Positions 1 through 48,697 of a stretch of 64,000 nucleotides of DNA are shown piece after piece; the stretch's first letter is position 1; each line of letters starts with the position of its first letter. Both the position numbers and the translations under genes were made by a program. A model generated the notes under the pieces. That model searched no databases. It was not told the DNA's origin and saw only the letters and a program-made list of their open reading frames with translations. The stretch is from Squalus acanthias. Lineage: Eukaryota. Location of the stretch: positions 97,714,001 through 97,778,000 of the forward strand of contig CM059432.1 of NCBI GenBank assembly GCA_030390025.1. The letters run 5' to 3'.

Positions 1-1624
1 CGTGCTTGTATCCCAGACGATGCTGGTGCGAGGTTAGGCCTTCGTTGCCTAATACTATTGCTTGCTCTGGTCTCCGGCCAGCCTTTTAGCAATAAGCACC
101 TGTGAGTGGTTCGACCCACTCGCCCTTACGGTTCTAACACTGGACTTAGGTGCAGGAGCAGTAATGCAGAGAAAACTCAGATAGACCCGGTTGAATAGTA
201 CGAAATGGAAATCTTTATTGCATAGCGTCCAAAATCATGAAGTACATGTCATAGGCGCAAATTAACGAGAGTACAAGTATACATACATTCATAAAGCTTG
301 GTCTACGGTAATGAAGAACGCACGGCACATCGTAAAAAGGGGAACACATTATACTTTATCCTTAATAAAACCACCCTCCCTTATCAATACCTACACTACG
401 TCTAGATTTGTAGGATCGGGAAACATGCTCACCACTCGTGATACTTCGGAGAATTTTAAAGTGAGGCACTCGGCTCGTCTCGCTGCAGCGCCTGACTGTC
501 ACGTGTTTGGAGGGGTTCTGCACCCCACTTGTTTATCTTTGCTGCTGCGACAAGCAGGCCGGGCTCCCTGTTGTCATGAAGAACTCGACAGAACTCGGAC
601 ACGGTTCAAAGAAGAGCCTTCCTGTGCCCGACACCGGTTGTCGGTAGAATTCAATGAAGAGTCTTTCTTGTATTTTCGGGCGCGGTCGGGGTTTACTGAC
701 CGTGGCGGCACGTGGATTCTTCTTCTTTTCTTGTCATTTCATCTTGTCTTTTCGGGCCTTCGGGTCCAGACACCGTTTACCGACTCTCGGGATGGTGCAC
801 CCGGTCACTTGCCCTTGTCGAGGCGGCTCGTTCCGTTTGAGCTCCACCCAACATTCGAATAACCGTCCAGTGCGGCTAAAAGTCAAGAGTCAACAGAGTC
901 CAGCCCTAAGGAAGAGCTTCAGCAAGGGTTCGCCGAGAGATAAGAGAATAAGAGACGATTCGAGCGAATAAGCGTCGAAAATCAAGAGACCGATGGACAT
1001 TTGCTCACTATAGTTATAGTGCTGTGTTCCCTTATCTCCCGCTCAAATCTTAATGTTTGTCCTTTGTATAAAATTGGCGCTCAAAAACTCCCAGCATGGG
1101 GCGATTCTTTCCTTAACGGGTTTCGGTAGCACCTGAAACTGGCCAACTACCCGTTAATGTTTTCCCCATTGTTGACCCAGCCAGGATTGTATGAATCATC
1201 TCCCTGACTGGTTTTTGGTGGCCCCCGAATATTCGTTTAATCACCCGTCGATGTCTCTCTCATTGTAGAGCCGTGGGGGTATTTGTGTATTGATGTGTCT
1301 GGATGGGCCTTCGATTGCCCAGTACAATGGTCCTTACTTGTGCATGGAAAACGATTCCAGCACTTATATCTTTGCTATTGTTCCAAATGCAAACAGGTTG
1401 CATCCTGTCTTTATCAGTGTTTATCGAGTATGATAAATGTTTATTCGAACGCCATCTTGTCTGTCCACTGTATTTCTGGAAGCTTCTGCCACGATGCGCG
1501 GTGGCCATTTTTACAGGCTTCTGTGTCCTTTATAATCAGGACAGCATTTCGTTTAAATAAAACTGATCAAACGAATCTGCTTCTCTTAAGTTATTTCGAA
1601 TCGCGATAATTGCGAAACTCTACA
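1..1624 (-). repeat. 3' LTR (first ~16 bp lie outside the window)
   Basis: Colinear with 30112-31806; ends ...CTCTACA at 1624; minus-strand AATAAA at 214-219; abuts the PPT. Confidence 0.9.
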
Positions 1625-1636
1625 GTCCCTCCTGTT
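1625..1636 (-). promoter_or_regulatory. Polypurine tract
   Basis: Minus strand AACAGGAGGGAC immediately precedes the TGTAG LTR start. Confidence 0.7.
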
Positions 1637-2015: not shown

Positions 2016-4367
2016 TTACACGGTACTTTCCTCGTTCACGTGCACGTAACGTTCTCTCCACTCCTCTGTGTTCTCCTGCTTTGTGAGGCGTTTGCCTCTT
2101 TTGCAGTGTACGACCAATAGGTACACTACAATCACTACTTGACACACTACCAAAATGTGGGAGGCTATCCTGATCCATGACGGAACTTCAATATTAGTGA
2201 ACAGATCCCACCACGGTGGGACTACTATGTCCAGTATCTCTGTCCCTATCTCTACAGTCTTTTGTTCTAGGGTGTAAAAATGTTTCTGTGATACCATGAC
2301 GGCTTTTAAAATCTTGGTGAGGTGTTCAGGGAGAGGGGGAATGATGTATCCGAAATGCGCGACGAATCGCTGCAAGTCTGTGAAATTCTCTTTTGCAGTG
2401 AGGTGAACAGTGGATGGTTCAGGAATCGGGACAATTCGCTGTTGTGCCACTTGAACTTCAGCCCTGGGTTTAAAACAGAAACTGCTGTCACTCACCGGAC
2501 ACCGGCTGTAGTGTCCATGCTGGTAGTGTTGCGCTGCAGTGGTAACGCAATACGTTCCACCCCCTATGTATGCCACCTGCGGAGGCACATGATCTTGTGT
2601 CATTGCTTCCATGGTGCAATTCATGGGCTTCGCGCCAGCCGTTCTGAACCCGCATTGTGGTGTTAAAAAGGCATTCAAGTGCTGGAGACACAGGATGATG
2701 TGTGCTCCCCGGCCACGACAACCCGAAAGGTCGGTACCTGTCATCGTTTGCTCCCAGCGGATAACGTAAGGTGGGACCACTGCGTAGCGAATGTGGGCTC
2801 CCCCCTGAATGACACCAATGTTCTCCACCCGGTACACCGGGGTGGGCTTTGCCGTGTCGCCCAACACCAGCATTCGTAGTACTATACCCATGATAGTGTG
2901 ATTTGACTGTCCGCAGTCCACTGGGACTGGGTATGCCTCTGAGGCTAGCCTGAGCTGGCACGGGCTTAATGCGTTCTGAAAAGGGTGGAGCGCCTGCAGG
3001 TGTTTGTTACTTATCCAGGACGGGACCAAACCTTGTTTTAAATCCTCCAAATTACTGCGGCCCTCGCCCAGTAACCACGCCCCGTATAGTACGCACACCT
3101 CGTTCTGCGCAGCTTGCTCGGATGCATTTCGATCTTCCCTGATCAGGGCATTTACCATTCTCGCATGCTTCTCCAGCTCTGCTATAATCTCTTTTAAGTG
3201 TAGTGTCATGGCCTGGTCCTCGTGTAACTCAGACCCTACTGCCTTGTTTTCACTTGTGAGGATGCTTTTTAACTGTGTTTTTAAACCGTTGATCTGGGTC
3301 TGCAGCTCCACATTGTCTAGAGCGTTGACCACAGATGTTCCCGTATTAAAAGCAGTGAACACATCGTTCACAACACCCCTTCTTTGTCTCCCCACCTGAC
3401 CCAAAACTTCGTGTGGTGTGGTGTATAAGCTTGTTTTGTCAATCTCTGCAAAATCAAACTCATAAAATTGCCTGAACATGTTTGTTAACAGGACCTGGTA
3501 CAATTGTTCCGTTTCTTTGGTACACCACTCTGGTAAATGCACCTCGGTGAGATTTAGAATCACCGAGGTCACCGCGTAATGTACCCCCTGATACAGTATC
3601 TGATCTGTTGGCACCAGTACCAGACCATTCCCGGGCCCCTTAGTGGTTTTAGGGCACCCTTCCTCCTGAGCCAAAGCCACCGGAATCATGGGCGGAGACT
3701 TGCGTGGGCGCGTGATGAGTTCAGTGGCGTTTACCGGGATCGGGGAGAATGGAGCTCCGCACCCCTTTGTGCTGACATCCCACCTCATCCCTTTCCCGTT
3801 GTCCTGCCACTGGTGTACGAAAAATAAGGATATACCCTTGGGGCAAACGTACTTCGATCCCCACATACAAACATATATTCCCTCATCCAGTTCCCACCAT
3901 TTGTCCCAACAGACTTTCAATTGTCTGTTAGTCCCCGTAATTGTCCGATGGGTATTGTTACCCAATCGCTCCCACTCGACCGAGGAATTTCTCATAGTCT
4001 TGCTTACCTTCCGTAGCCACCACCATCGGCTCAATGGGACCTTCCCATTGCATGTCAAACAAATCCTTTTGCCGACGGTGACGCTGATTCTGGGTGCAAT
4101 GATCCTCACTCTGGGGCACAGTAAAAAAGTCTCTTTGTAGGCAAATCCGGATGCGCTAGAGTATTCCGTCGAATTCGTTCCCAGCCATCCCGGCCACCTT
4201 CCCTTGTGGAAATAAGTGGCGGTTTCCTCAGCCTTTCGCTCCCTGGTCCCATCCGTCGTGATGGGGCCCGTGTCCCTGGAGCAACCGAACACAACGACAT
4301 CCTTGGTGAGGCCCCGATAGGCCAATCCATATCCGATCGTTGCGAGCACTATCAGAATCCTTTCCAT
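2016..4367 (-). CDS. env: Intact envelope / class I fusion glycoprotein, 783 aa, with N-terminal Ig-like domain
   Basis: Signal peptide; N-glycosylation sequons; furin site RQRR (aa 327-330); fusion peptide and heptad repeat; Cys-rich ectodomain; TM ~733-755; basic stop-transfer KRGKR; position upstream of PPT/LTR. Confidence 0.9.
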   Translation of the reverse strand: MERILIVLATIGYGLAYRGLTKDVVVFGCSRDTGPITTDGTRERKAEETATYFHKGRWPGWLGTNSTEYSSASGFAYKETFLLCPRVRIIAPRISVTVGKRICLTCNGKVPLSRWWWLRKVSKTMRNSSVEWERLGNNTHRTITGTNRQLKVCWDKWWELDEGIYVCMWGSKYVCPKGISLFFVHQWQDNGKGMRWDVSTKGCGAPFSPIPVNATELITRPRKSPPMIPVALAQEEGCPKTTKGPGNGLVLVPTDQILYQGVHYAVTSVILNLTEVHLPEWCTKETEQLYQVLLTNMFRQFYEFDFAEIDKTSLYTTPHEVLGQVGRQRRGVVNDVFTAFNTGTSVVNALDNVELQTQINGLKTQLKSILTSENKAVGSELHEDQAMTLHLKEIIAELEKHARMVNALIREDRNASEQAAQNEVCVLYGAWLLGEGRSNLEDLKQGLVPSWISNKHLQALHPFQNALSPCQLRLASEAYPVPVDCGQSNHTIMGIVLRMLVLGDTAKPTPVYRVENIGVIQGGAHIRYAVVPPYVIRWEQTMTGTDLSGCRGRGAHIILCLQHLNAFLTPQCGFRTAGAKPMNCTMEAMTQDHVPPQVAYIGGGTYCVTTAAQHYQHGHYSRCPVSDSSFCFKPRAEVQVAQQRIVPIPEPSTVHLTAKENFTDLQRFVAHFGYIIPPLPEHLTKILKAVMVSQKHFYTLEQKTVEIGTEILDIVVPPWWDLFTNIEVPSWIRIASHILVVCQVVIVVYLLVVHCKRGKRLTKQENTEEWRERYVHVNEESTV

Positions 4368-4637: not shown

Positions 4638-5453
4638 CTAAATTCTGCGAAGGCTGCCGCGAGCTTTTCCCAGTGGTGGGGGGGCACTGACCCCTTCCTT
4701 TGATCTGCCGCAGCCTGTCGCCGCTGCGCTGGGACTGGGATCTCCCTGGGCTACCTTGACCTTGAACTTACGCCTGGGGGTGCACGGGGGATTTGGCCAC
4801 GACTTCCTGGGCTGGGGTGTCTGACTTGACCTACGGAGGGCTACTTTGGGCAAGATTTCCAGGGCCGACGGACCAGGAACCAAGGCTTCCACCGTCACGG
4901 CCTGTGGTCCCACCACAGCCGCTGGCTCCGTCTCCCCTGGCTCCGCCCCCCTGAAATCGGGATTTGCAGTTTCTGGCTCCACCCTACTTAGCCCAGTATG
5001 TGGACTTCCACTCGCAATCCCTACCTCCCCTATGGGCAAGACTTCCAGGGCCGACGGACCGGGTACCGAGACTTCCACCGTCACGGCCTGTGGTCCCACC
5101 ACAGCCGCTGGCTCCGTCTCCTCTAGCTCCGTCCCCCTGGGCTCGGGATCTGCAGTTTCCGATTCCACCCTGTGTGGAACTCCACTCGGAGTCCCTATCT
5201 CCCCTAAGCTTGAGTCGAGGGCGAAACCTTCGTCCTCCGACCCCAGCACCTCTCCGACCGGGTCACTACCTTGATCGAGCTCCTCGAGCTCTTCCTCATC
5301 TGAATCCCAACACCAAGAAAAGATCCTACACTTTTCTAGAATGTCCTCTCCCGTCAAGCAGGCTGCTTTACCGGTCTGTGTGCCCTGCAGTTCTACCCGG
5401 GGCTGAGAGTCCCCACTCGCAGGTCTGGCCCCTCCCCTAAGACAGGCCACCAC
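4638..5453 (-). CDS. Acidic/Pro-rich ORF of unknown function with a 62-aa internal duplication; no ATG start
   Basis: 271 codons from a GTG, frame open ~48 codons further upstream; 186-bp direct repeat (4846 vs 5032). Confidence 0.4.
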   Translation of the reverse strand: MVACLRGGARPASGDSQPRVELQGTQTGKAACLTGEDILEKCRIFSWCWDSDEEELEELDQGSDPVGEVLGSEDEGFALDSSLGEIGTPSGVPHRVESETADPEPRGTELEETEPAAVVGPQAVTVEVSVPGPSALEVLPIGEVGIASGSPHTGLSRVEPETANPDFRGAEPGETEPAAVVGPQAVTVEALVPGPSALEILPKVALRRSSQTPQPRKSWPNPPCTPRRKFKVKVAQGDPSPSAAATGCGRSKEGVSAPPPLGKARGSLRRI

Positions 5454-5520
5454 CCCTGCTTGTGCATTCTGTGTGATCTCGCGGAGAAATGCGTCAGCGC
5501 TACGCGGAGCGGCCCAGGCA

Positions 5521-5624
5521 TTTCCGGACTCGTGTTTCTGATGTTCGAAGTCCGGAAACGCCCGAGCCCAGGTTGCGATATTTCCGGACTTCGGACATCA
5601 GAAACACGTTCCGAAGTCCGGAAA
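5521..5624. repeat. Pair of self-complementary hairpins that are inverted copies of each other
   Basis: TTTCCGGACT...AGTCCGGAAA at 5521-5558 and 5581-5624; the second is a near reverse complement of the first. Confidence 0.85.
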
Positions 5625-5684
5625 AACACGAAAACCGGCTCGGCCTTGGTCCCGAGGTTGCCGGATTCAGGACGCTCAACCTGT

Positions 5685-6220
5685 ATTTGCTTTTCTAATT
5701 GCTTGCTGTACCTGCATGTTAACTTTCAGTGATTCGTGCGAAAGGACACCCAGGTCCCTCTGAACACCAACATTTCCTAATCTCTCACCATTTAAAAAAT
5801 ACTCTGCTTTTCTATTTTTCCTACCAAAGTGGTTAACTTCACATTTCTCCACATTATATTCCATTTGCCATGTTCTTGCCCATTCACTTAGCTTGTCTAT
5901 ATCCCCTTGAAGCCTCTTTGCATTCTCCTCACAACTTACATTCCCACCCAGCTTTGTATCAGCAAACTTGGATGTATTACATTTGGTCCCCTCATCCAAA
6001 TCATTGATATAGATTGTGAATAGCTGAGGCCCAAGCACTGATCCTTGCGGTATCCCACTAGTTACTGCCTGCGAACCCGAAAATGACCCGTTTATTCCTA
6101 CTCTCTGTTTTCTGTCCATTAACCAATCCTCAATCCATGATAATATATTACCCCAATCCCATGAGCCCTAATATTGTTTAATAATCTCTTGTGTGGCACC
6201 TTATCGAATGCCTTCTGAAA
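5685..6220 (-). mobile_element. CR1 LINE RT fragment
   Basis: GIPQGSVLGPQLFTIYINDL, KFAD(D)TKLG. Confidence 0.9.
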
Positions 6221-30111: not shown

Positions 30112-31806
30112 TGTAAGGGGTGCCGGCGTGCTTGTATCACAGACGGTGCTGGTGCGAGGTTAGGCCTTCGTTGCCTAATACTATTGCTTGCTCTGGTCTC
30201 CGGCCAGCCTTGTTGCAATAAGCACCTGTGAGTGGTTCGACCCACTCGCCCTTACGGTTCTAACACTGGACTTAGGTGCGAGAGCAGTAATGCAGAGAAA
30301 AACTCAAATAGACCCGGTTGAATAGTACGAAATGGAAATCTTTATTGCATAGCGTCCAAAATCATGAAGTACATGTCATAGGCACAAATTAACGAGAGTA
30401 CAAGTATACATACATTCATAAATCTTGGTCTATGGTAATGAAGAACGCACGGCACATCGTAAAAAGGGGAACACATTATACTTTATCCTTAATAAAACCA
30501 CCCTCCCCTATCAATACCTACACTACATCTAGATTTGTAGGATCGGGAAACATGCTCACCACTCGTGATACTTCGGAGAATTTCAAAGTGAGGCACTCGG
30601 CTCGTTTCGCTGCAGCGCCTGACTGTCACGTGTTTGGAGGGGTCTCTGTACCCCACTTGTTTATCTTCGCTGCTGCGGCAAGCAGGCTGGGCTCCCTGTT
30701 GTCATGAAGAACTCGACAGCACTCGGGCCCGGCTGTAGAACTCAAAGAAAAGTCTTCCTGTACCGACACCAGTTGTCGGTAGAATTCAAAGAAGAGTCTT
30801 TGACCGGTTCGTGCAATAACCTGTAGAGTTCAAGAAGTGGGTCTTATATTTTCAGGCGCGGTCGGGGTTTACTGGCACGTGGATTCTTCTTCTTTTCTTG
30901 TCATTTCGTCTTGTCTTGTTGGGCCTTCGGGTCCAGACACCATTTACCGACTCTCGGGATGGTGCACCCGGTCACTTGCCTTCGTCGAGGCGGCTCGTTC
31001 CGATTGAGCTCCACCCAACATTCGAATAACCGTCCAGTGCGGCTAAAGTCCAGAGTCAACAGAGTCCAGAGAAAACACAGAAGCCTGCTCGTCCAGCAGA
31101 GCGATACCCGAGGATCAGAATAGGAGAATAAGAGTTCAGCCCGAGTCAAGAGTCAGCAGAGATAAGAGAGCGATGGACATTTGTTCACTATAGTTATAGT
31201 GCTGTGTTCCCTTATCTCCCGCCCAAATCTTAATGTTTGTCCTTTGTGAAATATTGGCGCTCAAAACTGCCAGCATGGGGCGATTCTTGTCTTTAACGGG
31301 TTTCGGTAGCACCTGAAACTGGCCAACTACCCGTTAATGTTTTCCCCATTGTTGAACCGGCTAGGAGCCTCCCTGGCTGGGTTTTGGGGGCCCCCGAATA
31401 CTTGTTTAATCACCCGAGAATGGCTCTCTCATTGTAGAGCCGTGGGGGTATTTGTGTATAGATGTGTCTGGATGGGCCTTCGATTGCCCAGTACAATGGT
31501 CCTTACTTGTGCATGGAAAACAATTCCAGCACTCATATCTTTTGCTATTGTCACAAATGCAAACAGGTTGCATCCTGTCTTTATCAGTGCTTATCGAGTA
31601 TGATCCCGTCTTATATTGAAATATTTATTCGAACGCCATCTTGTCTGCCCACTGTAATTCTGGAAGCTTCTGCCACGATGCGCGGTGGCCATTTTACAGG
31701 CTTCTGTGCCCTTTATAATCATGACAGCATTTTGTTTAAATAAACTGATCAAACGAATCTGCTTCTCTCTCATTATTTTGAATCGCGATAATTGCGAAAC
31801 TTTACA
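30112..31806 (-). mobile_element. Solo LTR of the env-bearing family (1695 bp)
   Basis: TGTAA...TTACA termini; flanked by GAC/GAC; contiguous CR1 coding sequence on both sides. Confidence 0.92.
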
Positions 31807-39255: not shown

Positions 39256-39821
39256 TTTCTGTTTGGGTGGTAATTGAAGTTTATAAAGGTATCTGGGAGA
39301 ATCTGTGCCAAGAACTTCCTTGGGCCTTCTCCCACTTCACTGCCATAACTTTGGTAGAAGTTCGGTGGGAAACCCTTTTACAGTTGTGCTCACTTGTACC
39401 CTGTAGAGGCTGGAACTCCTCCACTCACTCAGTGTACCTGCCACCACTGCAATACTGGATCCCTGCTCTGGAGCAGGAGTGGAAACTCAGTCTCAGTGAG
39501 CCCCTTGCCTCTGGCTTTGGCCCCAGCCCATCATTTGCTTTGTAAGAGGCGACTTCTGGTGTAACTGAGTCTCCACCGATTTCTTGCCAGAGTTACGGTG
39601 GGTTAGAGGCAGAAAGTCCGTGGCCATTATAAATTATGCATTCTGGGGTGAAAATCTGCTGGGGTTCCATTTGTCTCCCATTATAATTACAACGGGGGAC
39701 TGGCAGAGTCACCAGGGAAGAACAAAAATTTGGTTTCGCTGGGTCTCCAACATTTCTGGGAATTTCCAATTTGACTTGCAAAGGGCGGAACTTCCTACTG
39801 CTTCTTAAAAGGCAAATGAGC

Positions 39822-40783
39822 CAGGCTCCAGGGCAGAACTGTTGCCAGGGGTGGGTCCAGGGTCCAGGGTGGAGCTGTAGCTAGGGGTGGGGCCAGGGTA
39901 TGGAGCCAGGGGTGGGGCCAGGGGTGTGGCCAGGGTCTGGGGCAGAGGTGGGGCCAGGGGTGGGGCTAGGGTCCAGGGCGGAGCTGTAGCCAGGGGTGGA
40001 GCCAGGGTATGGGGCAGAGCTGGGGCCAGGGTCTGGGGCAGAGGTGGGGCCAGGTGTGGGGCCAGGGTCTGGGGCAGAGGTGGGGCCAGGGGTGGGGCTA
40101 GGGTCCAGGGCGGAGCTGTAGCCAGGGGTGGGGCCAGGGTCTGGGGCAGAGCTGGGGCCAGGGTCTGGGGCAGAGGTGGGGACAGGGCTGGGGTCAGGGT
40201 CTGGGGCAGAGGTGGGGCCAGGGTCCGGGGCAGAGCTGTAGCTAGGGGTGGGGCCAGGGTCTGGGGCAGAGGTGTGGCAAAGCTGGGGACAGGGTCTGGG
40301 GCAGAGGTGGGGCCAGGGGTGGGGCTAGGGTTCAGGGCGGAGCTGTAGCCAGGGGTGGGGCCAGGGTCCAGGGCAGAGGTGGGGCCAGGGGTGGGGCTAG
40401 GGTCCAGGGCGGAGCTGTAGCCAGGGGTGGGGCCAGGGTCTGGGGCAGAGGTGGGGCCAGGATCTGGGGCAGAGGTGGGGCCAGGATCTGGGGCAGAGGT
40501 GGGGCCAGGGGTGGGGTCAGGGCTAAGGTCAGGGACGGGGTCAGGGCTGGGTTCAGAGGTGGGGGCCAGGGTCCGGGGCGGAGGTGGGGCCAGGGTCTGG
40601 GGCAGAGGTGGGGCCAGGGGTGGGGCTAGGGTCCAGGGCGGAGCTGTAGCCAGGGGTGGGGCCAGGGTCTGGGGCAGAGGTGGGCCAGGATCTGGGGCAG
40701 AGGTGGGGCCAGGGCTAAGGTCAGGGACGGGGTCAGGGCTGGGTTCAGAGGTGGGGGCCAGGGTCCGGGGCGGAGCTGGGACC
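39822..40783 (+). repeat. G-rich minisatellite built from 6/12/24-bp units
   Basis: GGGGCCAGGGTCTGGGGCAGAGGT and variants in tandem. Confidence 0.95.
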
Positions 40784-43096
40784 AGAGGGATGCAGTCTGT
40801 AAGCTGGGAATTCCCACTCTTGTTCCACGGTAGAGACCCGGCAAGCTCGGTGAGGTGAGGCATATCAACCTACGCAAGTGCACTTCTGGGTCGCATCGGT
40901 GAGTTCCACACCAGGCAAGTGACCAAGAATCCCCAAAATGTAATATTTTGCTTTACAATTCTGCCAGTTTGACCTCCTTGTTCAGGACTGATAGACAATT
41001 GCTGTGATTAGTGAGACTCTGATCATCCTCCCTTCTCCAAGAGTGGAACAAGGCTGGAGCTTACAGCAGCATGGGGCAGGCAAGTGCTCCAGATGCATCT
41101 GAAGTGCCTGCCTGCCTAATGAGGTGCCCTCCCGCTAACCCCGCAGAATGTATAGGAGTATTGGACGGGATCCCAGCTTAACCCCTAGTATTGTGAACCT
41201 AGCAATCTTGGAGTCTTTGCTAACCACTTCTCTGGAAAGCCCAATAATATATTAAAAGGTAAAAATACAGATTCTGAGAAATTAATGAAAAATTATTGAG
41301 CTGTGTCGGGCAGCCTGACTGATCCCTTTCTGCTGATCTCTCCACGATATGCTTTTTGATTCAATCTGCAGAATAACCTCTGTCACTTACATCACTTCCT
41401 TATTGTAAGACTTCAAGGTTACAAAACCCTGGCTCCCAGCTTTTTTTGTTGTTGTGCTTCATGTTATGTTCAGAGTACTTTGAATTCCGGTGTTTCCGTG
41501 GTGGACAATCTACCAGAAAATATTGTATTGCTGCAGAAATTACCTGCCTCCACAGATCAATCAGAAAACTTGACACCCAAACTGGAGCAAGCAGCAAGCA
41601 AAGCTGAGTGACATGCACTCTGCGTCTTCTTATGCAACAGCAGGCATGATGCTATAGTTCATTATCGGCCTCCTGTTGGATTGGGTCAAGAGTTCAAAGA
41701 AACCTAGCCAGGGCAGCCTGTCGGCATCCAGATGATGGAGAAATCTGTCAGAAACATCAACACCTTCAAATCATAACTGCTCAAAAAAAAACAGCAGTCT
41801 GTGTGGCAGCTGGTGATCGGTCTAAACTCTGCAGTAACTTCCCTGCTACGGCTCTTTCAGAACAGCAACTTGTGTCGGAAAAAGAATTGAACTACTGTGC
41901 AATTCTGTTTTATTTTCCCGCCGTACAATCAGGAAATTCTTTTTTCCCGGCAGATTCTTGGAGACTGTGGTTACTTTGTCGGGTATTCACATGTATTTAT
42001 ACAGTGTGTATGTCATTATAACACACAAGGGTAGAGAATCCAACAGTTAAAAAAAAATGAATTATTCCCTTCGAGTCAGTGAATAAAGATGGCGGGTGCA
42101 GCATGCTGCTTCAGTTAGGATGAAAATAGAAAGTCTTGACGAATTGTTGTAGCATAATATTAAATTATAACTATTATAGACACTGATTTAGACAGTCATT
42201 TCTGAAACATAAAGCAGCAATTGCCTCCTGTAGGTTTCAGCTCTTGAGGAATAATTTTCAAGCAGACAAATTACATTTTCTGTGTGTTAGAGGGTGATCA
42301 GTTGACAAACAGAATTCATCAAGTATATTTTGAGCCAATTTTGCATTGGTGCTTAGAGAGTAAAATTCGGGAGATTTATATGACTCCCTCTGACATTAAT
42401 GCATTCGATGTTGCTGGGTTTGTGAAAACACCTGCATTGCATGTCACAGTACTAAGGAATTTAGCCAATTATTTGTCATGGGATTGGTGATTTGTTAATG
42501 GATTAAAATATTTTAGTTTGAAAAAAAATGCATTGATCTGTGGACTATTTCGGTGCAGCTTACATGATGCTTGATACCAGCAGGGTTCTTTAACAGACGC
42601 TATCAGACTGTACTTGCTAGATATATAGTGCAGTTTAATGATGAAAATGTTAACAATCTTTCATATACTACAATTAGTGAAAAATTCATAAATAGCATCA
42701 AATTTTAACATTTTCAATAGATTGACATAGATATCATTACTACTGTCATGTAAAACTGTTGGACTATAACCTGGTGTTGTGCGACTTCTCATTACTGTCA
42801 TGTAAGTATGCTAAATAAATCTATACAAGACAGTTATAAATTTATATGGCAAAACAACCAAATACTTGATAACACATCTTGAAGCAATAGCAACTGCTAT
42901 GCCTAAAGATAATTATTTTGGTATAATGCTATGGAAGTCTCTTCCCAGTCAGTTGCTAAGAAACAACATGTTGCTGGAATGTAATTAGAATAGATCAATG
43001 ATTTGCTTTCAAAAGTCACACTCTGCATGCTCAAGCATCTGTAATTAAATTATGCGTAAAAGGAATTCAAACTATGAATTGCCGTTGAATGCACAG

Positions 43097-46414: not shown

Positions 46415-48697
46415 TGGGCTAAAAACTCGGGTCTTTATGCCACCCCTATACCAGTAAAAAATTGTGAATAGAGGGCGGCTGCCACTCTTTCGCCAGCTGG
46501 TGGCGGGTCCCGTGGCTTCCTCCATTTTCCTAGGCCTGGCAGCGCTGCTCGTAAGATCCAACATCCTGCAAATTAAAATGAGGGAGCGGTGACGTCAATC
46601 GGCGTGTAACGCCAACTTAATGTCACCACGGCGAAGTTGGACCTTTGCGCTGAGTTCAGTGCTGGTTACTAAGCTCGCCATGTAAACCCAGCATGTAAGC
46701 AGACTCATAGAGGCGCTGTCAGCACCTCTTAAAGGGACACACACATCTTTCAGGTATGTCTGCATGTAAGCTTTTGGACTGGTTTTTTTTGATTTTAATG
46801 AAGTAGTGGCTTGTTGCAATAGATGTTAAAAGTTTTTTTTAAGTGTGTAGGGAGTACTGCTGGACACATGCAAGGCTTTGGATGGTAAAGGAAGGCCTCT
46901 GAGAAGACAGAAAATGCTTCAAATACTCAGCAGGTCAGGCAACATCCATGGAGAGAGAAACAGAGTTCACGTCTCAGGTCAAGATGCTGCCTGATCTGCT
47001 GAGTAATTCCAGCATTTTATGCTGTCATTTCAGATTTACAGCATCCACTCGCAGAGGGAAGAGGAAGACACAGGAGAGAAAGGAACAGAAGAAGAAGAAG
47101 CCGAAGAGGAGGAAACAGAAGTGGAGCAAGCAGAAGGGGGGAAACAGAAGAGGAGGAAGAACAGGAGGAGAAAGCAGAAGAGGAGGAAGCAGAAGGAAGA
47201 ATGCAACTCAGACAGCCCATTTCTGGCTGGGATATCCGGGATGGAATCATCCGCCTGCGGTACCAGTGACCACAACCCCAATTCCCCTTTCAACATTAGT
47301 CCCACATCTTCCCTTCCCTCTGATACTGACCATCTCAGCGTCCTCTTGGCTATGATGCTGAAATAAAAGCCACCACAAAGCAAACTTGCCAATCCAACTT
47401 TATGCATCTATCCATCCAATATGACATCAAGAAATCAACTCATTACCCTTATGCATTCTCTTAGTGACTGTCTTGTGTGTGCTTTTGCCTATCCTACTGA
47501 TGTCATGCAGTGCTACCCCAATGGCTGCAGCATGGCTGGTGGAAGGCTGCTGACTTTCAGTGGGGGACACTGCAAATGGCCTTGCTGGTCGACCTTGAAG
47601 AGCTGATGGCTGGGAGTGTCAAATCAAGTGTGGTGTCTCTTCTTCATCTTCTTCTCCTTCTTCCTCTTCTTCTTCTGGCTGGGCAGGCTGAATTTCTTGG
47701 GTGTGTGAAATGAGGAAGGCACAAGGGTGGAGTTGTGGTGAGGGAGGGCAGGAAAGCAAGGGGTGCATGCCAGAAGGAGGATAACGTATGAGGATACCAG
47801 CATCTTGTATCCTTTCAGCCATGCCCCTGCCAAGAATGGCCTGCACCATCTCCTCCAAGGGAATGGGAGATGTGCCTCATGATTGGTACAGATTGTTGGT
47901 AGGTGAGTGATTGATGGGGGGAGTCGTGCATTCAGCAGTGTGTGAGGCTAGTGGTGCAGTTGGTAGGAGACGGCTTTTGAAGTTGCATTCACTGACCTTG
48001 ACCAGTGGTCTGAGGTCATGAAGCTTCTTTGGGCACTGGAGCCAGGTGGTGGGGGCGACATTGCTGGCAGTGACGGTCTCAGTGATGTGGTCCCACATCA
48101 TTCTTTCTGTAGGGCCTCCTGGCCCCTGTGGGTAGAGGACGTCTCTTGCAGTGTTGACCCACTGCACAAAGCTGGAGTGCTGCGTGCGAGACCCTGGGTG
48201 CCCCTTCCCTGGCTTGCTGAGCCATTTGTGTTAGTGCTGAAAAACTTTTCCCATTTTTTGAGGTTCGGAAGGGAATTCAGCTTTTGAGTGCTGAAGACTC
48301 CCATTTAGGAATTCTTTTTAAAGTTAATTTTTTTTAAGGCAGTAAGGGCTGAAAACTGGATTTTTTCACTTCATTTTTAGTGTTATTACTTCAGAAGGTA
48401 TTGTCCTTTTAATACATTGCCCTTTTAATTACCCACAATTCCTAGCGAACTCCATAGCCTCGTTTTCAGAGGCTGTTAGAAGCTGGAACGCCGCTTCAAG
48501 ACGGGAACTTCGACTCCCATAGCTGCACTGACGCCACCAGGAGGGCATTACATGGTAAGTTAGCGCTGGGTTAAAAATCTTTACCACCCCCCCAGCATGA
48601 ATTTTTCCCTGGAAGCGTTTCATTCATTTTCAGCAGCCGTTAACCCAAGTTGCCAGAGACAGCGGCAACTCTCATGGCAGCCACAAATTTTTCCCCG
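46415..48697. mobile_element. Non-autonomous Harbinger derivative
   Basis: Myb exon on - (WLQCPKKLHDL..VK|gtcagt); only the Glu-rich HARBI1 tail remains. Confidence 0.65.
46905..47046. repeat. Inverted pair of Penelope pLTR-like fragments
   Basis: Both arms match 26172-26260 (GATGCTGCCTGACCTGCTGAGT). Confidence 0.75.

Follow-up and report, generated by a model that had tools for sequence, protein, structure and literature searches.

An intact F-like envelope gene in the shark Squalus acanthias belongs to a multicopy endogenous retrovirus family of a probably distinct basal lineage

What is a frame of 783 uninterrupted codons doing among decayed transposable elements in the genome of the shark Squalus acanthias? 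The initial annotation took it for an intact, non-orthoretroviral (F-protein-like) envelope in an LTR element, belonging to a young and possibly undescribed lineage of cartilaginous fish or else a candidate for a domesticated fusogen. We analyzed the frame within a stretch of 64,000 nucleotides (the window). On re-reading, the ORF proved stop-free, running on the minus strand from an ATG at 4367 to a stop at 2016; it is the longest of the 134 ORFs of at least 100 amino acids (aa) in the 64-kb window, the runner-up having 479 aa. The annotated RQRR cleavage site was found at aa 327 to 330, with the fusion-peptide stretch directly after it (aa 331 to 350). Env measures 403 aa from cleavage site to transmembrane helix (annotated as about 400). 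The whole protein has 22 cysteines, the annotated cysteine block among them, and 9 sequons. It has one strong transmembrane segment (Kyte-Doolittle values above 2 at window starts aa 732 to 739), and a motif check of the whole 783-aa sequence found no CX6CC, as annotated. The annotated signal peptide is a putative one, read from the hydrophobic N terminus. The LTR-element context also held, with a polypurine tract and 3′ LTR meeting at 1624 and a solo LTR farther along. The features are as follows.

1..1624, minus strand: 3′ LTR (TG...CA), continuing for about 19 bases beyond the left edge of the window (copy comparison)
1625..1636, minus strand: polypurine tract adjoining the 3′ LTR (sequence)
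2016..4367, minus strand: env ORF, type I membrane glycoprotein, 783 aa (ORF reading)
2106..2168, minus strand: transmembrane helix, aa ~734 to 754, then a tail of ~29 aa (sequence and AF2)
2199..3635, minus strand: F2/F1-like fusion core, aa 245 to 723 (AF2, Foldseek, VIA)
3318..3377, minus strand: predicted fusion peptide, aa 331 to 350, then a long heptad helix (sequence and AF2)
3378..3389, minus strand: furin-type cleavage site RQRR, aa 327 to 330 (sequence motif)
3858..4094, minus strand: likely Ig-like domain, aa ~92 to 170, in an N-terminal extension (sequence pattern, weak matches)
4638..5433, minus strand: Pro/Glu-rich C-terminal tail of pol with an internal repeat of ~180 nt (copy comparison)
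5434..6220, minus strand: 5′ break of the provirus (homology stops at 5433 to 5480), then unrelated repeats including a LINE RT fragment (copy comparison)
30112..31806, minus strand: solo LTR of the same ERV family, inside a LINE (LTR comparison)

The window copy is therefore truncated. It retains the pol tail, its sole pol remnant, together with env, the polypurine tract and the 3′ LTR, and has no 5′ LTR, no gag and almost no pol. The solo LTR at 30112 to 31806 is flanked by a duplication of 3 bp, one short of the 4 bp usual in the family. Elsewhere in the window, tandem repeats of 12/24 nt (39800 to 40870) and 15 nt (47050 to 47200) give rise to long low-complexity ORFs, and the remainder is mostly LINE fragments.

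The copy-number check suggested by the annotation shows a multicopy family. At least 57 Env protein matches occur in the animal's own genome, 56 of them other copies, at 94 to 96% identity or better, and at least 39 are stop-free. A 26-mer from env has 291 exact matches, so that env is present at least 291 times, and a 23-mer from the LTR start has 1,357; the reversed control of each gave 0. Whole copies are arranged LTR-gag-pol-env-LTR over ~12.3 to 12.7 kb, with TG...CA LTRs of 1.6 to 1.75 kb (flanks of the window copy and 9 others). In one natural copy, Pfam identifies protease, RT, tether, second RNase H and integrase (IN) in Pol, and a coiled coil with one CCHC in Gag; its Pol ends in a Pro/Glu tail of ~300 aa. 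In 10 copies, the interval from env to the LTR contains no ORF of at least 200 aa. For a systematic sample of 20 copies, the first 100 env matches listed (contigs C1 to C5, one substitution allowed) were thinned to one in five. Eleven of these carry gag, pol and env, five are pol-less with gag and env, and four are 5′-partial; an env frame of at least 770 aa is kept in only 3 of the 20.

Target-site duplications are 4 bp long and exact in 6 of 7 copies. The primer-binding site matches 18 nt complementary to the 3′ end of host tRNA-Arg(TCG) in 7 of 8 copies and, in whole copies, is separated from the LTR end by 5 nt. At all 15 gag-pol junctions found among 30 copies, gag ends in a TGA in frame with pol, followed in 14 by CTA. 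UGA-CUA is a readthrough context. Genes for tRNA-Arg(TCG) and tRNA-Ser(GCT) form large tandem arrays with a period of ~1.62 kb (contig C26, ~39 to 42 Mb), with 431 pattern matches genome-wide. We also observed one tandem provirus (L067/L087), in which a 3′ LTR is followed by a second primer site and gag. Contigs from 4 of 7 listed sequencing runs, guessed to be RNA, cover 30 of 30 bins of a whole copy, a kind of evidence from which level, strand and splicing are unreadable. No env splice joint is among the joints listed in those contigs, and the window stretch is not in any run recorded as RNA. LTR pairs (n = 8) differ by 0.83 to 1.83%, corresponding to ~8 to 18 My at the shark rate given in PMC10699275 and 19 to 42 My at that in PMC4422223; at these published rates the annotated "young" is a relative term.

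The pol-less copies form a subfamily of their own (L057, L060, L067, L070, L073 and three further copies). All eight examined share an insert that replaces protease, RT, RNase H and integrase and by eye resembles the Gag coiled coil. In the three copies whose junction was located, the frame stays open for 347 to 370 aa past the gag stop and runs into the pol tail, so that the readthrough frame is kept. They fall into two divergence classes, with ~77% and ~91% identity to the reference copy. Here too, env is constrained (ratio 0.08). Pol-less copies likely borrow Pol from whole ones.

We then considered what kind of fusogen this envelope resembles. An AF2 model built from 37 sequences had a pLDDT of 61.5 and a pTM of 0.45, with high pLDDT in the core. 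Foldseek against the PDB ranked paramyxovirus and pneumovirus F first (human parainfluenza virus 3 F, E = 3.7e-10). In VIA comparisons, Newcastle disease virus F scored Z 11.9 (rmsd 19.6, 378 residues aligned), respiratory syncytial virus and human metapneumovirus F about 9 (rmsd ~5.8), and foamy virus Env 8.3 and 7.3. BFVD matches included lispivirus G, baculovirus F and the Envs of WEHV1 (1e-11) and WDSV (1.5e-9); the BFVD entries Q9WHI8 and A4GTG3 are walleye epsilonretrovirus Envs that appear to have an F-like core. The top Atlas match was Fusion_gly (0.94). By sequence, a Pfam fusion family was recovered in 0 of the 37 Env family members, and Pfam and PDB searches with Env and its alignment returned none; one chimeric homologue matched Baculo_F at E = 0.001, below the cut-off. 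Taken over a middling AF2 model and high rmsd values, the predicted Env core fits paramyxovirus and pneumovirus F best, followed by foamy Env. This supports the annotated F-like, non-gamma-type envelope, and, unlike gamma-type Env with its CX6CC and short TM ectodomain, the shark protein combines a 403-aa ectodomain with no such motif. The label "non-orthoretroviral" has to be qualified: Snakehead retrovirus (SnRV, our reference L095) and the walleye epsilonretroviruses appear to carry such a core in their Envs although classed as orthoretroviruses, and foamy Env matches this fold too, if less strongly.

Like paramyxovirus and pneumovirus F and foamy Env (as described in PMC11468914), shark Env has a predicted F-type core, furin site, fusion peptide and heptad repeats, but its identity to them is only 7 to 16%. 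It also differs in where a putative receptor module is placed: N-terminal in shark Env, inserted within foamy Env and a separate protein in paramyxoviruses. Residues ~92 to 170 show an Ig pattern (Cys106, a Trp and DEGIYVC) and match Pfam Ig_3 at E = 0.36 and Atlas ig/V-set at 0.91, and the low-confidence N-terminal model (pLDDT 39) yields Ig-domain matches of which 0 reach E ≤ 1e-3. Several weak lines, none significant by itself, thus agree on a likely N-terminal Ig-like domain, a candidate receptor-binding module.

A HMMER search over 1.84 billion representatives returned 47 Env matches. Sixteen of the 18 that we looked up could be named, belonging to eight elasmobranch genera, Latimeria, Xenopus and Pelodytes, with a skate and a sawshark supplying the closest named ones. 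An HMM of the env family scored 67 bits against lokiretrovirus (Loki) env, −0.5 to 17 against foamy env and 15.5 against SnRV env, with 200 shuffled sequences reaching at most 1.7. With hhalign, the core aligned to that of SnRV env at 91.8% probability (E = 7e-7, 278 columns), and whole proteins gave 62% for SnRV and 10 to 81% for six foamy envs, against less than 0.6% for 20 shuffles. BLASTP gave no significant match between Env and SnRV Env, and comparing Gag was uninformative. On this sequence evidence, the shark env core is homologous to lokiretrovirus Env, one of those to which the annotation had likened its layout, and weakly homologous to SnRV Env. In frogs, the C terminus of the Pol relative P0009 runs into a segment that by eye resembles the V-set-like start of the env homologue P0042, which suggests that pol and this kind of env are linked there.

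RT gave a different picture from Env. RT references comprised 54 of 120 listed rows and earlier matches, to which further reference sets were added. Loki references were picked by their RT motif (the env of one, L131, matches the printed Loki-Sri Env by eye), and the RT of L095 is the SnRV RT printed in the supplement of PMC7947760. References L132 and L133 had no RT match, and three rows labeled gamma with a very long branch, probably deltaretroviruses, were left out of later trees. In the RT tree, a branch supported at 98/91 parts Loki and gypsy from the shark element and retroviruses, and the shark motif LPQGFHNSP contrasts with (C/T)PFGY(A/S)NSP in Loki. AU tests, run under LG+G4, a model that can reject wrongly, and with alpha-, beta- and lentiviruses unsampled, rejected shark plus Loki (p = 0.0497 for RT, 0.008 for RT and tether) and did not reject shark plus SnRV (p = 0.147 and 0.078) or shark plus foamy (p = 0.09). 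In the IN tree, a 97/92 branch instead leaves the shark element with Loki and divides it from SnRV, foamy viruses, ERV-L and gamma/epsilon; its IN relatives are annotated NYNRIN-like, NYNRIN itself being absent from that tree. The group of shark and amphibian/coelacanth elements has a support of 44/80, and no starred clade contains the shark element. Identities over RT, tether and IN were as follows.

Frog and coelacanth ERVs: 52 to 54%, 45 to 48%, 45 to 50%
SnRV: 46%, 24%, 34%
Loki L131: 32%, 40%, 42%
Foamy viruses: 33 to 37%, 16 to 19%, 30 to 32%

Judged by these identities, the element stands nearest to unnamed ERVs of amphibians and coelacanth. Its RT is of the retrovirus type, whereas its tether, integrase and env core are Loki-like. 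Such mixed affinities fit either ancestral states retained in a basal lineage or recombination. The combination points to a distinct basal lineage, likely sitting between lokiretroviruses and ordinary retroviruses.

We at first thought a lokiretrovirus highly probable, and dropped that reading after the RT motif contrast, the trees and the AU tests; a lokiretrovirus, or a Loki recombinant with a retroviral RT, now seems improbable. Such an element would be the first Loki in cartilaginous fish, as Fig. S1 of PMC7947760 reports Loki in 0 of 6 chondrichthyan genomes; three of those six species carry env homologues of the shark family. Gene order, the well-kept tether of a dual RNase H and an F-like, sequence-homologous Env are shared with lokiretroviruses, the env core is closer to Loki env than to that of any other reference, and tether and IN are Loki-like, IN on a side of its tree that may be NYNRIN/CGIN1-like. 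To our knowledge, however, a dual RNase H is present in all retroviruses and is not diagnostic for Loki. A Loki contig (L131:4440-4446) also has TGA-CTAG between in-frame gag and pol, as in the shark family; the word "readthrough" was not found in the main text of PMC7947760. On the other side, RT is 31 to 37% identical to Loki and outside its clade, which, with the AU rejection, largely refutes a Loki origin for RT; the protease region is short; and Loki Env has no counterpart of the ~215-aa, likely Ig-like N-terminal extension.

Somewhat less improbable, though still unlikely, is an already named lineage, with simple membership in the SnRV clade or in the CmiFLERV/XtrFLERV group of ghost shark and Xenopus. 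SnRV has the closest named RT, and shares with the shark element RT motifs, an in-frame gag-stop-pol, a coiled-coil Gag with CCHC and the env core; PMC4422223 groups elephant-shark ERV lineage I with SnRV, and the nearest rows in our comparison include proteins of Xenopus tropicalis. SnRV differs in its tether and IN, both more distant than those of Loki, in a TAG junction, and in an Env with a longer N terminus and a 136-aa tail, plus accessory ORFs, where the shark tail has ~29 aa; it is parted from the shark element in the IN tree and is never its sister. CmiFLERV/XtrFLERV (PMC5512871) and CmiERV lineage I (PMC4422223) are likewise basal retroviral lineages joining cartilaginous fish and frogs, and the shark lineage, compared by description only, may be the CmiFLERV/XtrFLERV clade, which PMC5512871 describes solely on the basis of pol, having detected neither gag nor env. 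ERV-Spuma.0-Sca was set aside, also by description, being grouped with teleost FLERVs in PMC10699275. The literature searched contained no account of this shark family or of a shark Loki, and none that describes SnRV or epsilon Env as F-like; Repbase, Dfam and some subscription papers lay outside that scope and could already contain the family. Spumaretrovirinae have a Gag without CCHC and make Pol separately from Gag. The shark element, with one CCHC and an in-frame gag-TGA-pol, is unlike them in these traits. Its tether is distant from theirs, and a grouping with foamy RT, though not rejected by AU, is absent from the best trees.

Selection on env bears on the proposal of a domesticated fusogen. 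In the 20 sampled copies, which replaced an earlier and biased set of the 30 best protein matches, the dN/dS-like ratio of env variants was 0.09 when they occurred in at least three copies and 0.46 when they were private (Fisher p = 6e-26), and the contrast was similar without CpG codons. Ratios were 0.16 in the N-terminal 230 aa and 0.06 in the core of env, 0.05 in pol and 0.20 in gag, while the pol tail, a near-neutral control, gave 0.73 for shared and 0.80 for private variants. Since private env variants fall under the pol-tail value, the private class includes some replication history. Purifying selection on shared variants implies that Env was needed during multiplication of the family, pointing to reinfection; the family likely spread by Env-dependent reinfection, and we infer that it was formerly infectious. 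The window copy itself shows no added constraint (6 synonymous and 11 nonsynonymous private env changes, ratio 0.54, compared with 0.45 in other copies). That it serves as a syncytin-like host fusogen is thus very improbable: its ORF is intact in an otherwise truncated copy, a state retained by few sampled copies, but it has at least 39 intact paralogues among at least 291 dispersed copies, and no 5′ LTR.

The ORF is the intact env of a truncated copy within a multicopy ERV family, bearing out the annotated enveloped LTR element of cartilaginous fish. The data show its anatomy, copy number, selection signal and env homology; readthrough, fusion, receptor binding, infection and the precise place in the tree are inferred, and we consider the account as a whole more likely right than wrong. 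Reverse transcription would likely be primed by tRNA-Arg(UCG), Pol likely made through UGA readthrough at gag-TGA-CTA-pol, and integration would leave the 4-bp duplications. Env would be furin-cleaved and act as an F-like class I fusogen, likely with an Ig-like receptor-binding domain, and the family would likely spread by reinfecting cells. The family likely represents a lineage of its own at the base of the retroviruses, with hosts among sharks, coelacanth, amphibians and turtles, and not a lokiretrovirus in the strict sense; entry is nonetheless predicted to work like that of lokiretroviruses, though the element is not Loki by RT.

Where retroviral env came from is an open question, and here an env tied to a retrovirus-type RT is homologous to Loki Env and detectably to SnRV Env, which makes a single-origin scenario testable with alignable sequences and hints that F-like envelopes are ancestral in retroviruses. 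Gag, env and cis-elements thereby become available for a basal lineage present in at least eight elasmobranch genera, coelacanth and frogs, as does a pol-less partner that keeps env under selection. A bolder reading, which we hold tentatively and think somewhat less likely to be right than wrong, is that it represents an undescribed link between Loki and canonical retroviruses, with an F-like env in the common ancestor of Loki, SnRV, walleye epsilonretroviruses and foamy viruses, later replacement by gamma/beta-type envelopes, and an Ig domain added here as receptor binder. If true, an ancestral F-like env would overturn the preference stated in PMC9040795 for independent env acquisition, which is based there on Loki and canonical Env proteins that "did not share detectable similarities".

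Four shark gene models (P0003, P0004, P0016 and P0043) fuse env pieces to Niban-like, cadherin-like, zinc finger and fbxo15 genes and are candidates for exonization or annotation artifacts. Full-length divergent env homologues occur in Chiloscyllium punctatum (P0019, 28%) and Pelodytes ibericus (P0026, 20%), candidates for separate invasions or domesticated copies.
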